Assembly (NCBI GenBank): GCA_000004985.1 | Contig: GG738846.1 | Strand: one strand, 5' to 3' | Length of the DNA: 64,000 nt | Source of the DNA: Naegleria gruberi | Lineage: Eukaryota | Shown: positions 23,166-37,584 of the stretch, one piece after another | Layout: every line of letters starts with the position of its first letter | How positions within the stretch are numbered: the stretch's first letter is position 1 | Notes under the pieces: model-generated | What the model saw: only the letters and a program-made list of their open reading frames with translations | Database searches by the model: none | Told to the model about the DNA's origin: nothing | Made by a program: the position numbers and the translations under genes

Positions 23166-23795
23166 ATGTATAGTACAACAAATTCAGAGGAATTTTCCAA
23201 CAAGTTCCAACGATCTCTAGATGGTCCAAACAACCATAACATCTTTCCTAGACAATCCCCTTCCAATCATAATACGGATCCAAACTTGATGAGAACCACC
23301 CAATTGTTCCATTCAACAATTAATAGTAAATCAGTTACACTTCATAAGGGAACAGGTGGAGGTTTTCAAACAAACAATTTACCATTTCGCCCAACTGATA
23401 ATGAAATTCCTGTTCAACCAGTGACAAGATGGAGAGACAGACTCATTGATCCTAATTGCCATCCATCAGATTTGTCAATGTCTCAATCAGCATTTAATAA
23501 GAAGGCTAGTTTATACAAGGAGAAGGAACATGCAGATGTTTTGGTTGAGACTTTAAAGAAATCAGCAGGGTATCAATCAAAAGTTGAGGATGATCCTCTC
23601 TTATCATCACATCCAACAGGATACAAGAGCAATTTTAAATCAAAGAACATTGTATCTGGGCAGGATTACCCAGATCATGTTGACTTACCAACCAGACAGC
23701 ATGTTAGTGAAATGAAACAAAACTATACTTTTGGAGATCCTTATCAATTCAATTCATTTATGGACACTATTAAGAGTTCTAACGTAGAGTACTAA
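23166..23795 (+). CDS. Hypothetical protein, 209 aa
   Basis: ORF with an ATG in a plausible context. I recognise no domain, and an upstream exon is possible. Confidence 0.4.
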   Translation: MYSTTNSEEFSNKFQRSLDGPNNHNIFPRQSPSNHNTDPNLMRTTQLFHSTINSKSVTLHKGTGGGFQTNNLPFRPTDNEIPVQPVTRWRDRLIDPNCHPSDLSMSQSAFNKKASLYKEKEHADVLVETLKKSAGYQSKVEDDPLLSSHPTGYKSNFKSKNIVSGQDYPDHVDLPTRQHVSEMKQNYTFGDPYQFNSFMDTIKSSNVEY

Positions 23796-23989
23796 TCCTT
23801 AAAGGACTATCGAATCAGAAAAAATCATTGGATAATATCTAATGATTTACTTGATGATTCCTTGATTCCTTTTGAATTAAACTTGATTGTAAATAATCAC
23901 CACAATAAATAATTCGGAATTTTGTTTCACGTTCTCCGAATGTGGTTTATTGTTGGTGGGAACGTAAAATTGAAACGGTGTGAAAAAAA

Positions 23990-25362
23990 ATGTCATCTAT
24001 TGTATCCGCTATTACTCAACATTCTAATCAATTGTTAATCCTCGGCTTGGGTGCTGCTTTGGGTTTTGCTGTCTCAAAGACTTGTTGCACTAAAAAGTGT
24101 ACAAGAGGTACTGGAGCTTGTAAGTCTGCCACCACTACTCCATCATCATCAACAACAACAACAACAACTCCATCAACTCCATCATCATCAAAGGGTCCAG
24201 TTGTTGATTACTCCAAGAAGACCAAGGAAGAAATCATTGCTGAATTCAAACAAGTTTTCACTGAATTAAAGCAATTTGTTTTGGAAGATATCAAGGCTAA
24301 CTATGAAGTTCCAGAAGAAAATATCCAATATGTTGAAAGAGTAGGTATTTATATTATTCTCACAGTGTTATTTATCATCACACACTTTACATTAAAATAA
24401 CTACAACATAATTTAAATATATTTAGGTACTTGAATATAACGTTCCTCATGGTAAATTGAATCGTGGATTGGCTGTTGTTGATACTTTGTTGATTTTGAA
24501 TAATTATCAAATTTCTCAAGAAGATTTCAAGTTGGCTAGTATTTTGGGTTGGTGTATTGAATTCCTCCAAGCATTCTTCTTGATTGCTGATGATATTATG
24601 GATGCTAGTGTTACTAGACGTGGTCAACCTTGTTGGTATAAATTGAATGATGTCAAGATGACTGCTTGTAATGATTACTTGATTGTTGAATCTCAAATTT
24701 ACATTATTTTGAAGAAGTATTTCAAAAATGATTTATATGTACCACTCGTTGATTTGTTCCATCAAGTCAGTTATATGACTGAATTGGGTCAATTGCACGA
24801 TTTGAGATCTCTCCCACCAAACGTTGATAAGAATTCTTCTGATGAAATTCCATTCCATACTTTCACTATTGAAACTTATTCATTGATTGTCAAGTACAAG
24901 ACTGCTTTCTACAGTTTCTACTTGCCATTGTACTGTGGTTTGATTTTGAGTGGTAAATTGGATGAAAATATTAGAAAGCAAACTTTGGATATTTCAATTG
25001 CTATGGGTGAATACTTCCAAATTCAAGATGATTATTTGGATTGTTATGGTGATCCAGAACACATTGGTAAGATTGGTAGAGATATTGAAGATTGTAAATG
25101 TTCATGGATGGTTGTTAATGCTTTAAAGTTGGCCAATGAAGAACAATTGACTGTCCTCAAGTCTAACTATGGTAAGGAAGAACCAGAAAAGGTTAAATTG
25201 GTTAAGGAATTGTATGCTCAATTGAATTTGGAACAATTGTACAAGGATTATGAAAAGTCTGCTATTGAATCTATGAATCAATTGATTGCCAAGGTTCCAG
25301 AAGTTATCAATAAGGATATTTACAAGACATTGTTGTCTAAGATTGCTAATAGAACCAAGTAA
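23990..25362 (+). CDS. Farnesyl diphosphate synthase with unusual N-terminal hydrophobic/Cys-rich/poly-Thr extension; 2 exons: join(23990..24340,24427..25362)
   Basis: FARM motif LIADDIMD and SARM motif FQIQDDYLDCYGDPEHIGKIGRDIEDCKCSW. Intron GTAGGT...TTTAG (86 nt). The junction reads ...IQYVERV|LEYNVPHGKLNRG, as in FPPS. The first ~75 aa are LLILGLGAALGFAVS, then CCTKKCTRGTGACK, then TTTPSSSTTTTTTPSTPSSS. Confidence 0.8.
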
Positions 25363-25437: not shown

Positions 25438-28400
25438 TTACACCTTATAACCAATTCTATTCTCCAACCACAAGTTTCTTGCCATTTCTGCAGATGGTCT
25501 TCTTTCATAATTCTTATCCAACATGATCATTACAAAATCAATAATGGCATTCACATCAATGGTTTGACCATTCACTATCACAGTATTATTATTACTTGGG
25601 GTAGCTAATAAGTTTTGACTACTTCCACTATTTGCACTGAGTGGCAAGTTACCAGCATTCAACGATTCCATAAAGGCCAAAGTCAATCTCTCTCTAATTT
25701 CCTTACCACCATTGAGGATAGAAATTCTTACAGTAGTTTGGAAATCTCTTGTTATCATGATATAAAATACACATCCCAATCCATAGATATCAGTTTTAGA
25801 TACATCTTTCACTTCACCAGCAAATAATTCTGGACTTTGGAACAATTCTGTACCAACAATACTTGTTTTTGTAATTACATTTTCAATATCTCCCTTTGCT
25901 AATCCAAAATCTGATAGAACAACATGATCTTGTGATTTTAAAAGGAAGTTTTCTGGTTTGATATCTCTGTGATAGACTTGTCTCTGATGAATATATTCAA
26001 TACTTGATAACATTTGTCGCATATAATTCAAAATTCTATTAATTGGTAAATTAGATTTCAAATTCAATAAATAAGATTGGAAATCACCCATTTCTAAAAA
26101 TGGCATTGTAAAACACCATTTTTCAAAATTACCAATATTAGTTTCAAATATTTCATAGACAGGTAAAATATTTTCATGATTCAATTTGGACATTTGAATA
26201 AATTCAACATTATTTCCCTCTTCTCTTGGTAAAATCTTCAAGGCAAGTATCTTTTTATCTTCACTCTGTAAATCACAAACTTTGAAAACACTTCCAAAAC
26301 CACCAAAACCAATCTTTTTCAATACTTCATATCTATTGATTAGAACATTCTTCTTGGTCTTTTTAACTTGATTTCCATTATTAGAAGTACTACTCTTCTT
26401 AATATTATTATACAATTTGACTAGATTTGAGATTTCTGTATTATCAGAGAGTGGTTTGATAAAGTAATTATAAATTAAATCTAGATTTGACTTTTCAAAT
26501 ATGAGTTTAAAGTATTCTTCAACATTTGGAATGGAGTTTTTGAGTTTTGGTAAAAGATTTGCATTAGAGAATAATCTAACATTGATAAAATCGGTCCACT
26601 TTTCATAAAATCTATTATGATTACCATTATAATTTGTAACTGACATTGGTAAAAAGTAAATATTAACAAATTTGGTATAGTCAATATTTGAAATTTCTTG
26701 TAAATAGTTTGCCATATACTCAAATATGGTAATCTTCATTTCAGTATCAAGTATTGTTGAAAATGATGCTAAACATAAACATTCCAAATAAATATTGGAA
26801 TTAAAATTATACTTTCTGATATATTTTAAAAATTCAAAAATATCCAACACTCTCTTCTTATGGAATGGTCTAAACATTTCAATTTCGGAAACCAATGGAT
26901 TGATACATTGTAATTTATCAAATTCTCCATTAAGTGTTGAATTAATCATACTTAATATAATGTTAATAGTTTCTTGATTATTTTCAGAGATGGAGAGCAT
27001 TTCTGTAAAGAGATTGTCATTATTACAAGACCAATAAATGATCAAGTAGAAGAATGTATAAATTTTCTTTCTTAATTCCATTGAATTGGTATATAATTGT
27101 TCACTCTTTGGTTTAGTTTCCATTTCTTTCAAATACTTTTTACAATCGGCCATTAATTGAATATCAGAGTTGAGTAAAATTGGACCAAATTGACAAAGTT
27201 GATAAAATAAATTAATAATAACTGGAGTACTCAACTCATTATTGACAATGATAGTATTTTCAAATAATCTACCAATTTGAACCAATAGTGGAATGTAATT
27301 CTTATCTTTCTGAATATTCTCCTTAATGAGAGGTATGGTAATTTTAATGAGAATAGAATTGATAAGATTAACATTAAATGTTTGGAAACATTTGGATTTG
27401 AGAATGTTTGAATATACATTGAATTTTTCAGTTTGTGAAATTTCAATTTCGAATAGGTTCTTTAAGAATGCTTCAAACTCTTCATAGGTCAGAATTTCAA
27501 ATAAAATATCAAATACAGAGACAGTGAGTGATTTCATCAAATTACCCTTCACAACAGCAACATTTGGTAAGTTGGTTGCATTGAGGTTTAGAATGAGTAG
27601 TAATTTAGAAACGAGTGAATTAAATTGTTCTTTAAATTCAATAATTTCTTTGGTTTGCTTTGTTTGCTTCTTCTTTTCCTGTTGGGAACTATTCTTCTTT
27701 TTCAACATGATCATAACAAGTGAGAATGATTGAATGGCATGATAAATAGTCTTGTAGTGGATTTCATTATTAGAAATTGAAGTAGAGTTATTCTTTGAAA
27801 TCATTGAGAGAGTATTTAACGATTCTTGTAATCTATCATTGAGATAGATTAAAACAGATTGATAAACTTTTTCATTAATTGGAATCTTGTAAATGATTTG
27901 TTCAAATAATAGTTCAGAATTTTTAAAATATTGACCAATGAAATAGAATAGAGATTCCAAAGTCTTCAATCGAATATGTGGATCATCAAAGTAAAATTCC
28001 AAAATTGAAAACAATGAAATGAATAACCCATTTGCATGTAAAACACATTCCTTATAGGTAATCTTCTTTTTTACAACTTCAATCAATTCAAGTATTGAAA
28101 TATTCTTGATAATGAATTGCTTCCACAGGAAGAATATTTGTAAATAGTTGTTATGCGGTATTGTTGAAATGAAGAATGTAAAACTCATTTTGATATTATT
28201 CTTTTCAGGTTTTGATTTCTTCAATTCAGGTAAAATACTTAAAATATTAGCTCTCGATGATAAATTACCATATAAAGTATTGGATGAATTCTTTTGTGGC
28301 TTGTATAGTTCAATAAGTTTCAATTTTTCAAAATTCATAATTGATTCATTATCTGTAAACTTGTAAAAACCAACAAGTGCTGGTTCATCTTCAATTTCAT

Positions 28401-30534
28401 ACTTATTTCCCCTGCTCGAATTGTTAATGTTATAAATATAGAGATATAGATATAAATTATCAAAACTCTCAACATTGGAAGCATCAATGTGAAAAGGTTC
28501 AAAGAATTTTGGATTTGTTTTTTTACAGAACAAGTAACTTGTATAGTGATAGGGTCCATCAATATTATCCATCAATTTACCAGATCTAATCTTGATTGGA
28601 TCATTTTCATTATTTCTATAAAGTGGAATAAATCTTCCCTCCTTTGTTTGATTATTCTTCACTTCAAATAATCGAATAACTACGAGTGGATTCTTGGATT
28701 TTATCATTGAAGATGAAAATGTAGCTCTATCCATTGATGGATAAATATCACATCTATTTTCTAAGAATGAATAATTGGTTCTAATTTCATTCTTTGTATT
28801 GATTGAAAACCAATTAATAGGTTTAGCTGTTGTAAGTCTTTGAAATTGTGGCTGATCATTTAAAATTATATCATAATCACCCTTATAAAATACAAAATTA
28901 ACATTTAACTGATCTTTCAATTGTTTACATTCAGTTCCAATTGTTTTGTAAGAGTAGAGTGAAGTTGGAGCACTCTGTACACTAGTTGTTGATAATTCAT
29001 TAATGAGAGATGTTAAAGTTGTGGAAGAACCTGCATTTGGTGAGCTAAGGGCTGATGAGGTAGAACCTGTTGTTATTGTTGTACTGGTGGTGGAACCTGA
29101 TGTGAATGGTGATAGTGTTGTTGATGCATTTGTTGTTGATATTGTTGTTGATGGAGCACTGCTGCCCATTAGAAGATTACCAAGTGAAGAGGCATTACTG
29201 GTGGAGGATGAATTTAAACCGAGAAGTTCACTCGAAGAGGATGGGTTATTTCCACCCATGATAGATCCCTTTCTTCCAATTGTATTGTTATTATGAGATG
29301 TTGTTGTTGTATTGTTATTACTATTTGAATTGTCACTAGTTGAAGAAGTATTCGAATCTTCATCTTCTAACAGATAGGTTGGTTTAACACTTAAACGTTT
29401 ACCAACATGTTGAGCAGCAATAACAGCATGTAACATTGTAAATTTCTTTTCATGAGTCTTTTCATAAAATTCACAAGATTTTGTTATGGATTGACCATTT
29501 GATAATTCTCTAATAGTATCATGATCGAATGGAATTGCACAAACAGCAAGAGGTCTCCTCAAGTGTGTAATATCTGAATCATCTTTTGCAGGATTGTAAT
29601 TATACATGAAATTTTGACTATTATTATCAATATTTGATAGTAAACTAGTAGAATTATTATTAGAAATTGATGTCTTTGTAATATTATACTTTTTAAAGGC
29701 TCTACCTATTAGAAATATATCATCCTTTAATAAATAGGATCCAGTAACATCTCTAAATAAACAAATTCTGTTTCTACCACTGTCAGATGAAATTGCTACA
29801 GTTTCCGATATAAATCTTGCTTCATTTAAACTATAAAGTGTAAAATCAATTTCAATATTTTCCTCACTCTGAGCAGAAAATATATGAAAATCAAAAACAA
29901 CCATCAATTGAAAAGTATCATTAATAGAAATGTTCAATTTCTTTGTACTTTCTTCCACATTATCCAAATCTGAATTTCCATCATTGACATTTAATGATGA
30001 TGATCCACTGCTATTGTTATTGGATGAAGAATTACCACTACCAATACTACCATTACTTGTATTGAGTGATGATGATGCTGATGCTGACGAGGTTGAATTT
30101 GATGAAGATCCAGCACCATTAGTATTCATCTTTTTAGATAGGGTATTCAAAACTTTATCTTTAAAGGAGAGACTCTTCTTCTTTTCATTGGTAGTACCAG
30201 CCCCCATTGGACTAGAAGAGGAGGGTGATGTTTGTTGTTGTTGTTGTTGTTGATGTTTGTTTCTCCTTCTTCTATAATTGAGTGTTACAAGTTTTAAATG
30301 TTGTTTATCATTGATAAATTCTTCAAGGAATGATCGACCATGATTAGTTTCATTCTCAATTTCATTGATGCTATCAATGATGGAAATATAGGGAGAAGTA
30401 GAATTATTTTCATTATTATTATTACTTGAATTGCTGAAACTTTGTCTCAGTGTGTTGTTATTGAAGGAGGAACCACCACTGCCACCAGTGTAGGATGGAA
30501 GTAAATGTGGTGAGGTTCCTGAGATCTTTCTCAT
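25438..30534 (-). CDS. Giant multidomain protein (1698 aa) with C-terminal Ser/Thr protein kinase domain and long helical/low-complexity N-terminal region
   Basis: Kinase motifs GFGGFGSVFKV, ALKIL, HRDIKPENFLL, DFGLAK, SPE and DIYGLGCVFY lie in the last ~300 aa. Upstream are Asn/Ser/Thr/Gln homopolymers and a long helical repeat region. Single exon. Confidence 0.75.
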   Translation of the reverse strand: MRKISGTSPHLLPSYTGGSGGSSFNNNTLRQSFSNSSNNNNENNSTSPYISIIDSINEIENETNHGRSFLEEFINDKQHLKLVTLNYRRRRNKHQQQQQQQTSPSSSSPMGAGTTNEKKKSLSFKDKVLNTLSKKMNTNGAGSSSNSTSSASASSSLNTSNGSIGSGNSSSNNNSSGSSSLNVNDGNSDLDNVEESTKKLNISINDTFQLMVVFDFHIFSAQSEENIEIDFTLYSLNEARFISETVAISSDSGRNRICLFRDVTGSYLLKDDIFLIGRAFKKYNITKTSISNNNSTSLLSNIDNNSQNFMYNYNPAKDDSDITHLRRPLAVCAIPFDHDTIRELSNGQSITKSCEFYEKTHEKKFTMLHAVIAAQHVGKRLSVKPTYLLEDEDSNTSSTSDNSNSNNNTTTTSHNNNTIGRKGSIMGGNNPSSSSELLGLNSSSTSNASSLGNLLMGSSAPSTTISTTNASTTLSPFTSGSTTSTTITTGSTSSALSSPNAGSSTTLTSLINELSTTSVQSAPTSLYSYKTIGTECKQLKDQLNVNFVFYKGDYDIILNDQPQFQRLTTAKPINWFSINTKNEIRTNYSFLENRCDIYPSMDRATFSSSMIKSKNPLVVIRLFEVKNNQTKEGRFIPLYRNNENDPIKIRSGKLMDNIDGPYHYTSYLFCKKTNPKFFEPFHIDASNVESFDNLYLYLYIYNINNSSRGNKYEIEDEPALVGFYKFTDNESIMNFEKLKLIELYKPQKNSSNTLYGNLSSRANILSILPELKKSKPEKNNIKMSFTFFISTIPHNNYLQIFFLWKQFIIKNISILELIEVVKKKITYKECVLHANGLFISLFSILEFYFDDPHIRLKTLESLFYFIGQYFKNSELLFEQIIYKIPINEKVYQSVLIYLNDRLQESLNTLSMISKNNSTSISNNEIHYKTIYHAIQSFSLVMIMLKKKNSSQQEKKKQTKQTKEIIEFKEQFNSLVSKLLLILNLNATNLPNVAVVKGNLMKSLTVSVFDILFEILTYEEFEAFLKNLFEIEISQTEKFNVYSNILKSKCFQTFNVNLINSILIKITIPLIKENIQKDKNYIPLLVQIGRLFENTIIVNNELSTPVIINLFYQLCQFGPILLNSDIQLMADCKKYLKEMETKPKSEQLYTNSMELRKKIYTFFYLIIYWSCNNDNLFTEMLSISENNQETINIILSMINSTLNGEFDKLQCINPLVSEIEMFRPFHKKRVLDIFEFLKYIRKYNFNSNIYLECLCLASFSTILDTEMKITIFEYMANYLQEISNIDYTKFVNIYFLPMSVTNYNGNHNRFYEKWTDFINVRLFSNANLLPKLKNSIPNVEEYFKLIFEKSNLDLIYNYFIKPLSDNTEISNLVKLYNNIKKSSTSNNGNQVKKTKKNVLINRYEVLKKIGFGGFGSVFKVCDLQSEDKKILALKILPREEGNNVEFIQMSKLNHENILPVYEIFETNIGNFEKWCFTMPFLEMGDFQSYLLNLKSNLPINRILNYMRQMLSSIEYIHQRQVYHRDIKPENFLLKSQDHVVLSDFGLAKGDIENVITKTSIVGTELFQSPELFAGEVKDVSKTDIYGLGCVFYIMITRDFQTTVRISILNGGKEIRERLTLAFMESLNAGNLPLSANSGSSQNLLATPSNNNTVIVNGQTIDVNAIIDFVMIMLDKNYERRPSAEMARNLWLENRIGYKV

Positions 30535-37534: not shown

Positions 37535-37584
37535 NNNNNNNNNNNNNNNNNNNNNNNNNNNNNNNNNNNNNNNNNNNNNNNNNN
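37535..37584. other. Assembly gap (50 N) between the tandem repeat copies
   Basis: A run of exactly 50 N. Confidence 0.95.

Follow-up and report, generated by a model that had tools for sequence, protein, structure and literature searches.

A predicted N-terminal membrane anchor on the farnesyl-diphosphate synthase of Naegleria gruberi and its heterolobosean relatives

Described farnesyl-diphosphate synthases and their N-terminal extensions

The location of farnesyl-diphosphate synthase (FPPS), whether in the cytosol, the peroxisome or the mitochondrion, has been argued over for decades. Characterised FPPS enzymes are soluble. They begin near residue 77–85 of the N. gruberi enzyme, whose residues ~77–428 align end to end with eukaryotic type-I FPPS (plant FPS2 7BUX, avian 1FPS and human FDPS; E 4e-94 to 1e-79), and the preceding 76-residue module of anchor, Cys cluster and linker is without counterpart in any solved structure. 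The statement of the sequence-only reading that FPPS is normally soluble holds for the characterised enzymes, but TM-like N-termini are frequent among homologue clusters, being found in about 36 of the nearest 120 and in 26 of 119 full-length representatives at 50% identity.

N-terminal extensions that send FPPS to an organelle, as proposed here, are described for Dictyostelium FDPS (PTS2) and plant FPS1L (mitochondrial presequence). Both are, however, soluble import signals, and the N. gruberi enzyme carries neither type. The PTS2 pattern (R/K)(L/V/I/Q)xx(L/V/I/H/Q)(L/S/G/A/K)x(H/Q)(L/A/F), scanned in strict and loose form, gave no match in six heterolobosean N-termini; the stretch AITQHSNQL of N. 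gruberi agrees at eight of nine positions, but the essential basic first residue is missing and the stretch is not conserved. A mitochondrial presequence was also rejected: the four Naegleria and Willaertia proteins lack Arg throughout their first 30 residues and have a hydrophobic moment (muH) of 0.07–0.12.

More similar in layout are the stramenopile FPPS (Haslea HoPTS1, Nannochloropsis and Dinobryon), in which one to three hydrophobic segments and a linker precede the FPPS domain, as in N. gruberi. HoPTS1, the TM-bearing enzyme of the diatom Haslea, is reported to be probably an ER-membrane protein and a source of FPP for sterols. In the NJ tree the stramenopile proteins grouped in a clade of their own, and their anchors have YFGGAMY and PASCD..FDVP motifs and, unlike those of Heterolobosea, no basic C-terminal flank; the YFGG tetrapeptide is shared by Acrasis alone. 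A common origin of the two kinds of anchor was rejected (hhalign probability of 0.7% between the anchor profiles), and a word-indexed search with the three-TM domain of Dinobryon returned only three fragments. For a TM-bearing FPPS there is one diatom precedent, about a quarter of nearby clusters have N-terminal hydrophobic segments, and on sequence grounds the heterolobosean anchor appears to be a distinct type. The literature searched made no explicit mention of an anchor on Naegleria FPPS or of an FPPS tethered to the mitochondrial outer membrane.

Gene structure and catalytic domain

The FPPS gene of N. gruberi consists of two exons separated by an 86-nt phase-0 intron, and its product is a 428-aa type-I FPPS. 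The features of the locus are as follows.

23930..23938, + strand: motif CGTTCTCCG, non-coding and conserved; candidate promoter or 5' element
23980..23989, + strand: motif GTGAAAAAAA, adjoining the start codon and including an in-frame TGA; kept in three Naegleria species
23990..24340, + strand: exon 1, codons 1–117, a single uninterrupted ORF; anchor, Cys/basic cluster, linker and first conserved FPPS helices
24341..24426, + strand: intron of 86 nt, phase 0, GTAGGT...TTTAG
24427..25362, + strand: exon 2, codons 118–428 plus TAA; catalytic core
24589..24603, + strand: FARM DDIMD, D172–D176; invariant columns
25027..25041, + strand: SARM DDYLD, D318–D322

The start codon is the ATG at 23990; the intron opens with the donor GTAGGT at 24341 and closes with the acceptor ..TTTAG, whose last base is 24426. 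An in-frame TGA at 23981–23983 lies upstream of the ATG, so the ORF has no possible 5' extension. Motif CGTTCTCCG occurs once in the window (the whole stretch of DNA analysed, 64 kb) and also precedes the orthologous ATG of N. lovaniensis (L001 2850) and Naegleria sp. (L002 629, L004 187), with CGTTCTCCG first and a spacing to GTGAAAAAAA of 43–54 nt in every case. No tRNA genes were found within the 64-kb window.

Exon 1 is missing from the NCBI model, XP_002682719.1; this partial sequence of 310 aa, 100% identical, starts at LEYNVPHGK and covers exon 2 only. Exon 1 belongs to the FPPS of N. gruberi. Its splice sites, ORF and exon layout in orthologues bear this out, and its translation is exactly that of the sequence-only reading. 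N. lovaniensis, Naegleria sp. L002 and Willaertia have the end of exon 1 at an identical phase-0 intron position (after ..YVER or ..YIER), and Acrasis has it at roughly the same place; this position and a start reading 'MS' are kept across four genera. Used by itself as a query, exon 1 retrieved nothing but the identical ORF of N. gruberi.

The extension might instead lie outside the functional protein, as an artefact of the gene model or upstream of the true start of translation or transcription, and it is left out of the NCBI and JGI model. This is extremely improbable, as exon 1 also codes ~45 residues of conserved FPPS helices required for the fold. The earlier reading had named transcripts starting downstream, for example at an internal Met near KEEIIAEF, as a refutation of the extension; after M1, the frame has no second Met before the FARM DDIMD in N. 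gruberi, N. lovaniensis and the third Naegleria species, so such a start could not yield a working enzyme. Also against an artefact are the retention of the anchor in six species of Heterolobosea, one of them Percolomonas, whose entry gives no genomic contig (presumably a transcriptome-derived MMETSP translation), the purifying selection on the anchor and the conserved motifs 5' of the ATG. Moreover, independent authors used the same full-length sequence: Suppl. Data 2 of Horvathova et al. 2021 (PMC8134430) already prints an FPPS identical to the spliced model. The N. gruberi reference gene model should gain 118 codons.

The catalytic domain was matched by PF00348 at residues 113–382 (E=3.7e-73, 246 bits; Pfam cut-off 27). 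The motifs GKLNRG, RRG, KT and C-terminal R-x-K, the last of which closes the active site, are present, and G126, K127, R130, R181, R182, K275, T276 and R426 were invariant in an alignment of 65 sequences. F167 and F168 lie at -5 and -4 before the FARM, within LQAFFLIADDIMD; aromatic residues at -4/-5 are the chain-length signature of type-I eukaryotic FPPS, limiting the product to C15. The N. gruberi enzyme is predicted to be active and catalytically a standard type-I FPPS.

The N-terminal extension and its conservation

The translation reads MSSIVSAITQHSNQ / LLILGLGAALGFAVS / KTCCTKKCTRGTGACK / S-T-P tract / ..KEEIIAEFKQVF, and was divided as follows.

23990..24031, + strand: residues 1–14, MSSIVSAITQHSNQ; short N-flank of net charge 0, predicted non-cytosolic
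24032..24076, + strand: residues 15–29, LLILGLGAALGFAVS; hydrophobic core of the predicted signal anchor, 15 residues
24077..24124, + strand: residues 30–45, KTCCTKKCTRGTGACK; basic, Cys-rich juxtamembrane segment with C32, C33, C37 and C44
24125..24193, + strand: residues 46–68; low-complexity S/T/P spacer
24194..24340, + strand: residues 69–117; beginning of the conserved FPPS fold, with the GPxVDYSKK strand and then helices A and B

The core LLILGLGAALGFAVS had a KD15 of 2.26, a muH of 0.12 and an <H> of 0.60. When the 75-residue extension was shuffled 20000 times, the observed 15-residue hydropathy maximum was reached in only 31 cases, so the hydrophobic clustering is above chance. The flank before the core has a net charge of 0, the 15 residues that follow the core sum to +4 and residues 30–45 to +5; K30 directly abuts the C-terminal end of the core. 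For the N. lovaniensis orthologue, AF2 confidently places residues 9–33 in an isolated helix (pLDDT 80–88), leaves the linker disordered (pLDDT <50 in the region matching the spacer) and models the catalytic core at pLDDT >95.

The same anchor layout was found in N. lovaniensis, the third Naegleria species and Willaertia, and an anchor is also present in Acrasis and Percolomonas, hence in all six heterolobosean FPPS. With four relatives included, a comparable hydrophobic segment occurs in each of the ten members of the heterolobosean-like clade, with an uncharged core of ~15–28 residues (15–16 in the three Naegleria), an N-flank charge of ~0 and a C-flank charge of +1 to +4. All six heterolobosean proteins have a charge difference qC-qN of +1 or more (N. 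gruberi qN 0, qC +4), and the hydrophobic moment is 0.07–0.12 in five of them and 0.30 in Percolomonas. The dN/dS of the anchor (~0.3–0.4), compared with the linker (~0.5–1.2, near neutral) and the core (~0.1), shows purifying selection on the anchor. Hydropathy, shuffles and conservation across the clade together confirm the anchor-like segment that had been noticed in exon 1, and its insertion into a membrane is predicted.

The Cys cluster that had been noticed is present, but the metal-binding role suggested for it was rejected: only the CC pair (C32/C33) is common, and only within Naegleria, where three species keep it. With conservation limited to that pair, the cluster is unlikely to be a metal site. 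A juxtamembrane or in-core Cys occurs in eight of the ten clade members, Willaertia and P0009 being without any Cys. The CC pair is a candidate S-acylation site.

The linker also exists as reported. It is partly coded by (CAA)6.3 at 24150–24168 and (CAACTCCAT)2.2 at 24165–24184, and the alignment showed a 23-residue insertion in the N. gruberi spacer that is missing in other Naegleria. The poly-Thr tract is a trinucleotide-repeat expansion specific to N. gruberi, and this part of the linker has no counterpart in the orthologues. A match to Pfam New_glue (E=0.004; 17 bits, cut-off 31) was rejected as a low-complexity artefact.

After the spacer, N. gruberi and N. lovaniensis agree at G69, P70, V72, D73, Y74, S75, K76 and K77; elsewhere DYSK alone is kept in Willaertia and VDFGKK stands in the third Naegleria. 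The dN/dS of residues 69–117 is ~0.1–0.2.

Cellular location of the enzyme

The fractionation proteomics of N. gruberi was obtained by others (PMC8134430). In its Suppl. Data 2, XP_002682719.1 belongs to the putative mitochondrial cluster as one of 946 proteins, with 17 unique peptides, the cluster being defined with 376 mitochondrial markers. The MS database entry was the 310-aa partial model (35.9 kDa), and the 17 FPPS peptides therefore all come from the part outside the extension; peptides encoded by exon 1 include GPVVDYSK, EEIIAEFK, QFVLEDIK and ANYEVPEENIQYVER. Over the OptiPrep fractions, log2 LFQ was 27.26/28.65/30.42 for FPPS and 24.80/26.50/28.19 for Tom40. Squalene synthase, HMG-CoA synthase and HMG-CoA reductase share the cluster. 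From the lightest fraction, FPPS and squalene synthase rise by 1.2–1.4 log2 units versus 2.0–2.8 for matrix proteins. A remark of the authors beside FPPS reads 'in plant mitochondria', and their predictors called the protein secretory (MultiLoc S84, TargetP S65). The putative mitochondrial cluster could include mitochondria-associated ER. The suggestion of the earlier reading that isoprenoid synthesis is membrane-tethered or organelle-targeted agrees with this co-fractionation, the insertion itself being predicted.

The enzyme is probably tethered to the surface of an organelle and not soluble. Drawing on the gene structure, conservation and sequence properties analysed here and on the co-fractionation reported by others, we infer its insertion, topology, host membrane and acylation, and consider it moderately likely that an N-terminal signal anchor which is not cleaved fixes FPPS to the mitochondrial outer membrane, the catalytic domain lying on the cytosolic side. 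The first ~76 residues would form the anchor module. The uncharged residues 1–14 would cross the membrane, residues 15–29 would span it, and the basic residues 30–45 would be held at the cytosolic face, where the CC pair may be acylated. The flexible, fast-evolving S/T/P spacer would keep the dimeric FPPS domain in the cytosol beside the membrane, most likely the mitochondrial outer membrane, and FPP would be supplied near the co-fractionating squalene synthase.

Tom20, Tom70 and OM45 are similarly built, with a short, moderately hydrophobic, Gly/Ala-rich N-terminal segment, then positive charge and a cytosolic bulk. The likeness is physicochemical only: there is no sequence homology, the passenger of FPPS is a metabolic enzyme and the rules come from outside Heterolobosea. 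Microsomal P450 anchors also have a similar layout (short N-terminus, hydrophobic segment, basic halt-transfer, hinge and cytosolic catalytic domain) but are far more hydrophobic, with a KD19 of ~2.5 versus 1.0–1.8 in the heterolobosean FPPS. Among the reference anchor sequences compared, KD19 is 1.83 in TOM20, 1.07 in Tom70, 1.88 in OM45 and 2.5–2.6 in P450 ER anchors, so the heterolobosean values fall in the range of the first three and below P450, which favours the mitochondrial outer membrane type.

Another short-chain prenyltransferase, the membrane-bound trans-GGPPS pB318L of African swine fever virus (ASFV), has an N-terminal TM helix (residues 1–21) followed by a basic motif, a layout like that predicted for the N. 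gruberi FPPS; the two anchors of its dimer were termed 'pincers', and it was seen on the ER and the mitochondrial outer membrane. It differs in being a viral GGPPS, in its basic motif being an NLS, and in having neither a Cys cluster nor an S/T/P spacer.

The main rival to the outer-membrane model is the same uncleaved anchor placed in the ER (P450-like type III), perhaps at mitochondria-associated ER or with a dual location in ER and mitochondria; we regard it as possible but unlikely. FPPS would then adjoin the squalene synthase, dolichol and sterol enzymes of the ER. Squalene synthase is classically an ER tail-anchored enzyme, and S-acylation of juxtamembrane Cys is typical of proteins exposed to the ER and Golgi. 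The double location of pB318L and the probable ER membrane location of HoPTS1 also speak for the ER, as do the secretory calls on the full-length protein and the co-clustering of squalene synthase with FPPS, both rising less steeply than matrix proteins (PMC8134430). Against it, FPPS falls inside a cluster set by mitochondrial markers, classical ER marker strings (Sec61, calreticulin, PDI and OST) were absent from the examined part of Suppl. Data 2, and the anchor hydropathy is well under that of the classical ER anchors.

The co-fractionation would also fit an FPPS inside the mitochondrion, fixed in its inner membrane or exposed to the intermembrane space, where mitochondrial precursors would give FPP for ubiquinone and haem A/O. 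Plants possess a mitochondrial FPPS isoform, and the HMG-CoA synthase and reductase of the same cluster both have presequence-like N-termini (PMC8134430). This location is nevertheless improbable: there is no Arg-rich amphipathic presequence (the first 30 residues contain a single Lys and no Arg; muH 0.12), a bipartite stop-transfer signal would require one before the TM segment, and the charge distribution leaves most of the protein on the side it is inserted from.

Highly improbable, finally, is a cleavable signal peptide that would release FPPS into the secretory lumen, with an O-glycosylated S/T/P tract and Cys in disulfides. The 15-residue h-region, A-V-S at -3..-1 (which obeys the signal-peptidase rule), the mucin-like linker and the 'S' calls of TargetP and MultiLoc point that way. 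However, a signal peptide has the opposite charge order to an uncharged n-region with +4 straight after the putative site, other species do not keep the -3/-1 pattern (..LFLY|KK in N. lovaniensis, ..FALF|KK in the third Naegleria) and the orthologues are without the poly-Thr tract. No supply of IPP and DMAPP is known in the ER lumen. The mitochondrial co-fractionation (PMC8134430) is a further argument against this reading.

Some of these observations also weigh against the outer-membrane model: the core of only 15–16 residues in Naegleria, the fit of AVS at -3..-1 to a signal-peptidase site, the secretory predictor calls (PMC8134430) and the probable ER location reported for HoPTS1, the only studied TM-bearing FPPS. 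The disagreement between a 'secretory' prediction and mitochondrial fractionation makes this FPPS a useful test case for localisation predictors.

FPPS is a bisphosphonate target, and the genus Naegleria includes the pathogen N. fowleri; recombinant Naegleria FPPS would be better designed without the first ~70 residues. A broader and rather speculative proposal, which we think has a small chance of being right, is that Heterolobosea organise isoprenoid synthesis around the mitochondrion, with HMG-CoA synthase and reductase inside, and FPPS (N-anchor) and squalene synthase (tail anchor) on the outer membrane as a cytosol-facing channelling pair; membrane-anchored FPPS would be widespread and possibly ancestral (Discoba, stramenopiles, about a quarter of FPPS clusters), and the soluble animal, fungal and plant enzymes derived. 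The location of FPPS sets where FPP can be drawn on for sterols, ubiquinone, dolichol and protein prenylation, and an integral-membrane FPPS conserved across a protist phylum, its mitochondrial association being backed by independent proteomics, if true, would be a concrete, testable case of surface-tethered FPP synthesis.

Gene structure and the N-terminal extension

The farnesyl-diphosphate synthase (FPPS) gene consists of two exons, with the start codon 194 nt from the stop codon of the upstream gene. The following features were located in the window:

23981–23983, + strand: in-frame stop codon TGA upstream of the start codon
23990, + strand: start codon ATG
24341, + strand: intron donor GTAGGT, up to which the exon 1 reading frame is open
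Up to 24426, + strand: AT-rich intron of 86 nt, ending in TTTAG
24427–25362, + strand: exon 2, in phase with exon 1, with stop codon TAA at 25360–25362

The product has 428 amino acids, matches PF00348 at residues 113–382 (E = 3.7e-73) and has all hallmarks of type-I FPPS: GKLNRG, the first DDxxD motif (FARM) as DDIMD at residues 172–176 with the FF pair at −5/−4, RRG, KT, the second motif (SARM) as DDYLD at residues 318–322, and the C-terminal R-T-K. Alignment to all solved FPPS structures begins only at residue ~77–85 (best match 7BUX, 4e-94), and residues 1–76 are therefore an addition; their composition is exactly that proposed in the sequence-only reading, namely a hydrophobic anchor, a Cys cluster and a poly-Thr linker.

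The uncharged core (residues 15–29; hydropathy over 15 residues 2.26) is non-amphipathic (hydrophobic moment 0.12), with a net charge of 0 on its N side and of +4, together with four Cys, in the next 15 residues. When the extension was shuffled 20000 times, an equally hydrophobic 15-mer appeared in only 31 cases. The succession of core, basic C-flank and polar linker is common to all six heterolobosean FPPS and four close relatives, and Cys adjoins or ends the core in 8 of these 10. Of the features first described, the anchor is conserved across the Heterolobosea; of the Cys cluster, a CC pair is kept in the three Naegleria; the poly-Thr tract, coded by the repeats (CAA)6 and (CAACTCCAT)2, is not present in other Naegleria. 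The dN/dS values were about 0.3–0.4 for the anchor, 0.5–1.2 for the linker and 0.1–0.16 for the catalytic core, with small counts and synonymous sites near saturation. AlphaFold2 predicted for the N. lovaniensis orthologue a helix at residues 9–33 (pLDDT 80–88), disorder at 33–38 (pLDDT <50) and, for the core, pLDDT >95.

Separately, Willaertia FPPS (P0004, locus L005) carries at residues ~180–200 a 17-residue Cys/Lys-rich insertion (..PSCKKACEKVCAGKQQAEK..), which sits in a surface loop after KHYFK and is not in any other aligned sequence. The FPPS gene is preceded by an ORF of ~205 aa (23166–23795, + strand) and is convergent with a 1698-aa ORF (25438–30534, − strand) that has long tracts of Asn/Ser/Thr and, at its C-terminus, a protein-kinase domain; the stop codons are 75 nt apart. 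N. lovaniensis and the third Naegleria have the same gene order. The window has an assembly gap of 50 N at 37535–37584.

Authenticity of exon 1

Exon 1 is genuine, on four lines of evidence. The two-exon layout is common to the orthologues of N. lovaniensis (406 aa), the third Naegleria (SRA run SRR15442181), Willaertia magna (416 aa) and Acrasis kona (393 aa), all of which begin with MS and have the intron at the matching position (phase 0, after ..Y(V/I)ER). A single exon 1 ORF covers the extension and ~45 residues of conserved FPPS helices. No in-frame Met stands between M1 and FARM in any of the three Naegleria, and a downstream start, the objection foreseen at the outset, is therefore incapable of giving a working enzyme. 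Two non-coding motifs, spaced 43–54 nt apart, precede the ATG in the three Naegleria:

Window: CGTTCTCCG at 23930–23938, GTGAAAAAAA at 23980–23989
N. lovaniensis, locus L001: 2850 and 2904
Third Naegleria, loci L002 and L004: 629 and 672; 187 and 230

The remaining intergenic DNA 5' of the Naegleria genes is unalignable, and in Willaertia and Acrasis neither motif was found 5' of the gene. Both may serve this gene specifically, as elements of its promoter or 5'-UTR.

Exon 2 matches, at 100% identity, the record 'predicted protein, partial [Naegleria gruberi]' (XP_002682719.1 / EFC49975.1), which has 310 aa starting with LEYNVPHGK; exon 1 is therefore missing from the reference model, with 118 codons absent in total. 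As the fourth line of evidence, other authors independently used this model: the sequence given for XP_002682719.1 in Supplementary Data 2 of Horvathova et al. 2021 (PMC8134430) is exactly this full-length FPPS. An artefactual extension is extremely improbable. An ENA assembly has the two exons as distinct ORFs, P0147 (136 aa) and P0296 (301 aa).

Distribution and precedents

A TM-like N-terminal segment is present in about 36 of the 120 nearest 90%-identity FPPS clusters and in 26 of 119 apparently full-length 50%-identity representatives. In the NJ tree these sequences form two groups, heterolobosean-like, with one hydrophobic segment per protein, and stramenopile-like (Nannochloropsis, Dinobryon), whose members have one to three segments together with the motifs YFGGAMY and PASCD..FDVP; homology between the two anchor types was not detected (hhalign 0.7%). 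The stramenopile-like group is large (P0047, P0049, P0056, P0057, P0072, P0073 and others, including Dinobryon; 470–520 aa), and its N-terminal domain of ~130 residues has up to three hydrophobic segments, with the conserved YFGGAMY and PASCD..FDVP..LP ahead of the catalytic core. No published description of this domain was found.

Literature precedents for organelle-targeted or membrane-anchored FPPS-type enzymes are few: the ASFV GGPPS pB318L, which has a TM segment at its N-terminus and is located on the ER and mitochondrial outer membrane, and Dictyostelium FDPS, peroxisomal via PTS2. No description of the Naegleria anchor, or of any FPPS tethered to the outer membrane of mitochondria, was found. 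The enzyme is standard and the targeting signal is of a known class; for FPPS, their combination had not been discussed before.

Targeting signal and subcellular location

PTS2 was not found in the extension. The nonapeptide AITQHSNQL (residues 7–15; window 24008–24034) fits PTS2 at 8/9 positions, lacks the essential basic first residue and is not kept in other Naegleria; the resemblance is probably fortuitous. From its sequence, the N-terminus has the layout of an uncleaved signal anchor with a putatively cytosolic C-terminal domain; we infer that it inserts into a membrane in this orientation and that the CC pair is S-acylated. A cleaved signal peptide would agree with the secretory predictions of Horvathova et al. 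(MultiLoc S84, TargetP S65), but the charges run opposite to those of secretory signal peptides and the N. gruberi −3/−1 pattern is not conserved, and this reading is very unlikely. Hydropathy over 19 residues (1.0–1.8) agrees with that of signal anchors of the mitochondrial outer membrane (TOM20, Tom70, OM45; 1.07–1.88), and P450 ER anchors have much higher values (about 2.5); this comparison is a lead and not a test.

In the fractionation of N. gruberi by Horvathova et al. on OptiPrep gradients, 946 proteins were assigned as putatively mitochondrial by a LOPIT-like PCA that used 376 mitochondrial markers. XP_002682719.1 is among them; 17 unique peptides were detected, and coverage of the partial model was 61.6%.

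Log2 LFQ in OptiPrep 10–15%, 15–20% and 20–30% (PMC8134430)
FPPS (XP_002682719.1): 27.26, 28.65, 30.42
Tom40: 24.80, 26.50, 28.19
HslU: 26.84, 29.32, 31.00
Squalene synthase: 26.39, 27.56, 29.03

A location inside mitochondria would also agree with this clustering; an Arg-rich amphipathic presequence was sought in the extension and not found, and we consider this location improbable. Anchoring in the ER or in mitochondria-associated ER membranes, or a dual location, would fit the secretory predictions; Sec61, calreticulin, PDI and oligosaccharyltransferase strings were absent from the portion of Supplementary Data 2 covered, the first rows of a truncated table of the mitochondrial cluster; this option is regarded as possible, at a lower likelihood. 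We favour, with moderate confidence, a signal-anchored FPPS in which the N-terminal segment would be the anchor and would hold the catalytic domain on the cytosolic side; the outer membrane of the mitochondrion is its most probable site. The membrane-tethered or organelle-targeted isoprenoid synthesis first suggested was essentially the right interpretation of a real feature.

Part of the evidence was already published, uncommented, in a supplement; the authors' sole remark on this FPPS is 'in plant mitochondria', and their main text does not take it up. The mitochondrial cluster also includes squalene synthase (XP_002681803.1), HMG-CoA synthase (XP_002683507.1; TargetP mitochondrial 86) and an HMG-CoA reductase of soluble type, which lacks the customary multi-TM domain (XP_002668160.1; MultiLoc mitochondrial 95). 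The clustering of these three enzymes with FPPS hints at a mitochondrion-centred isoprenoid pathway.
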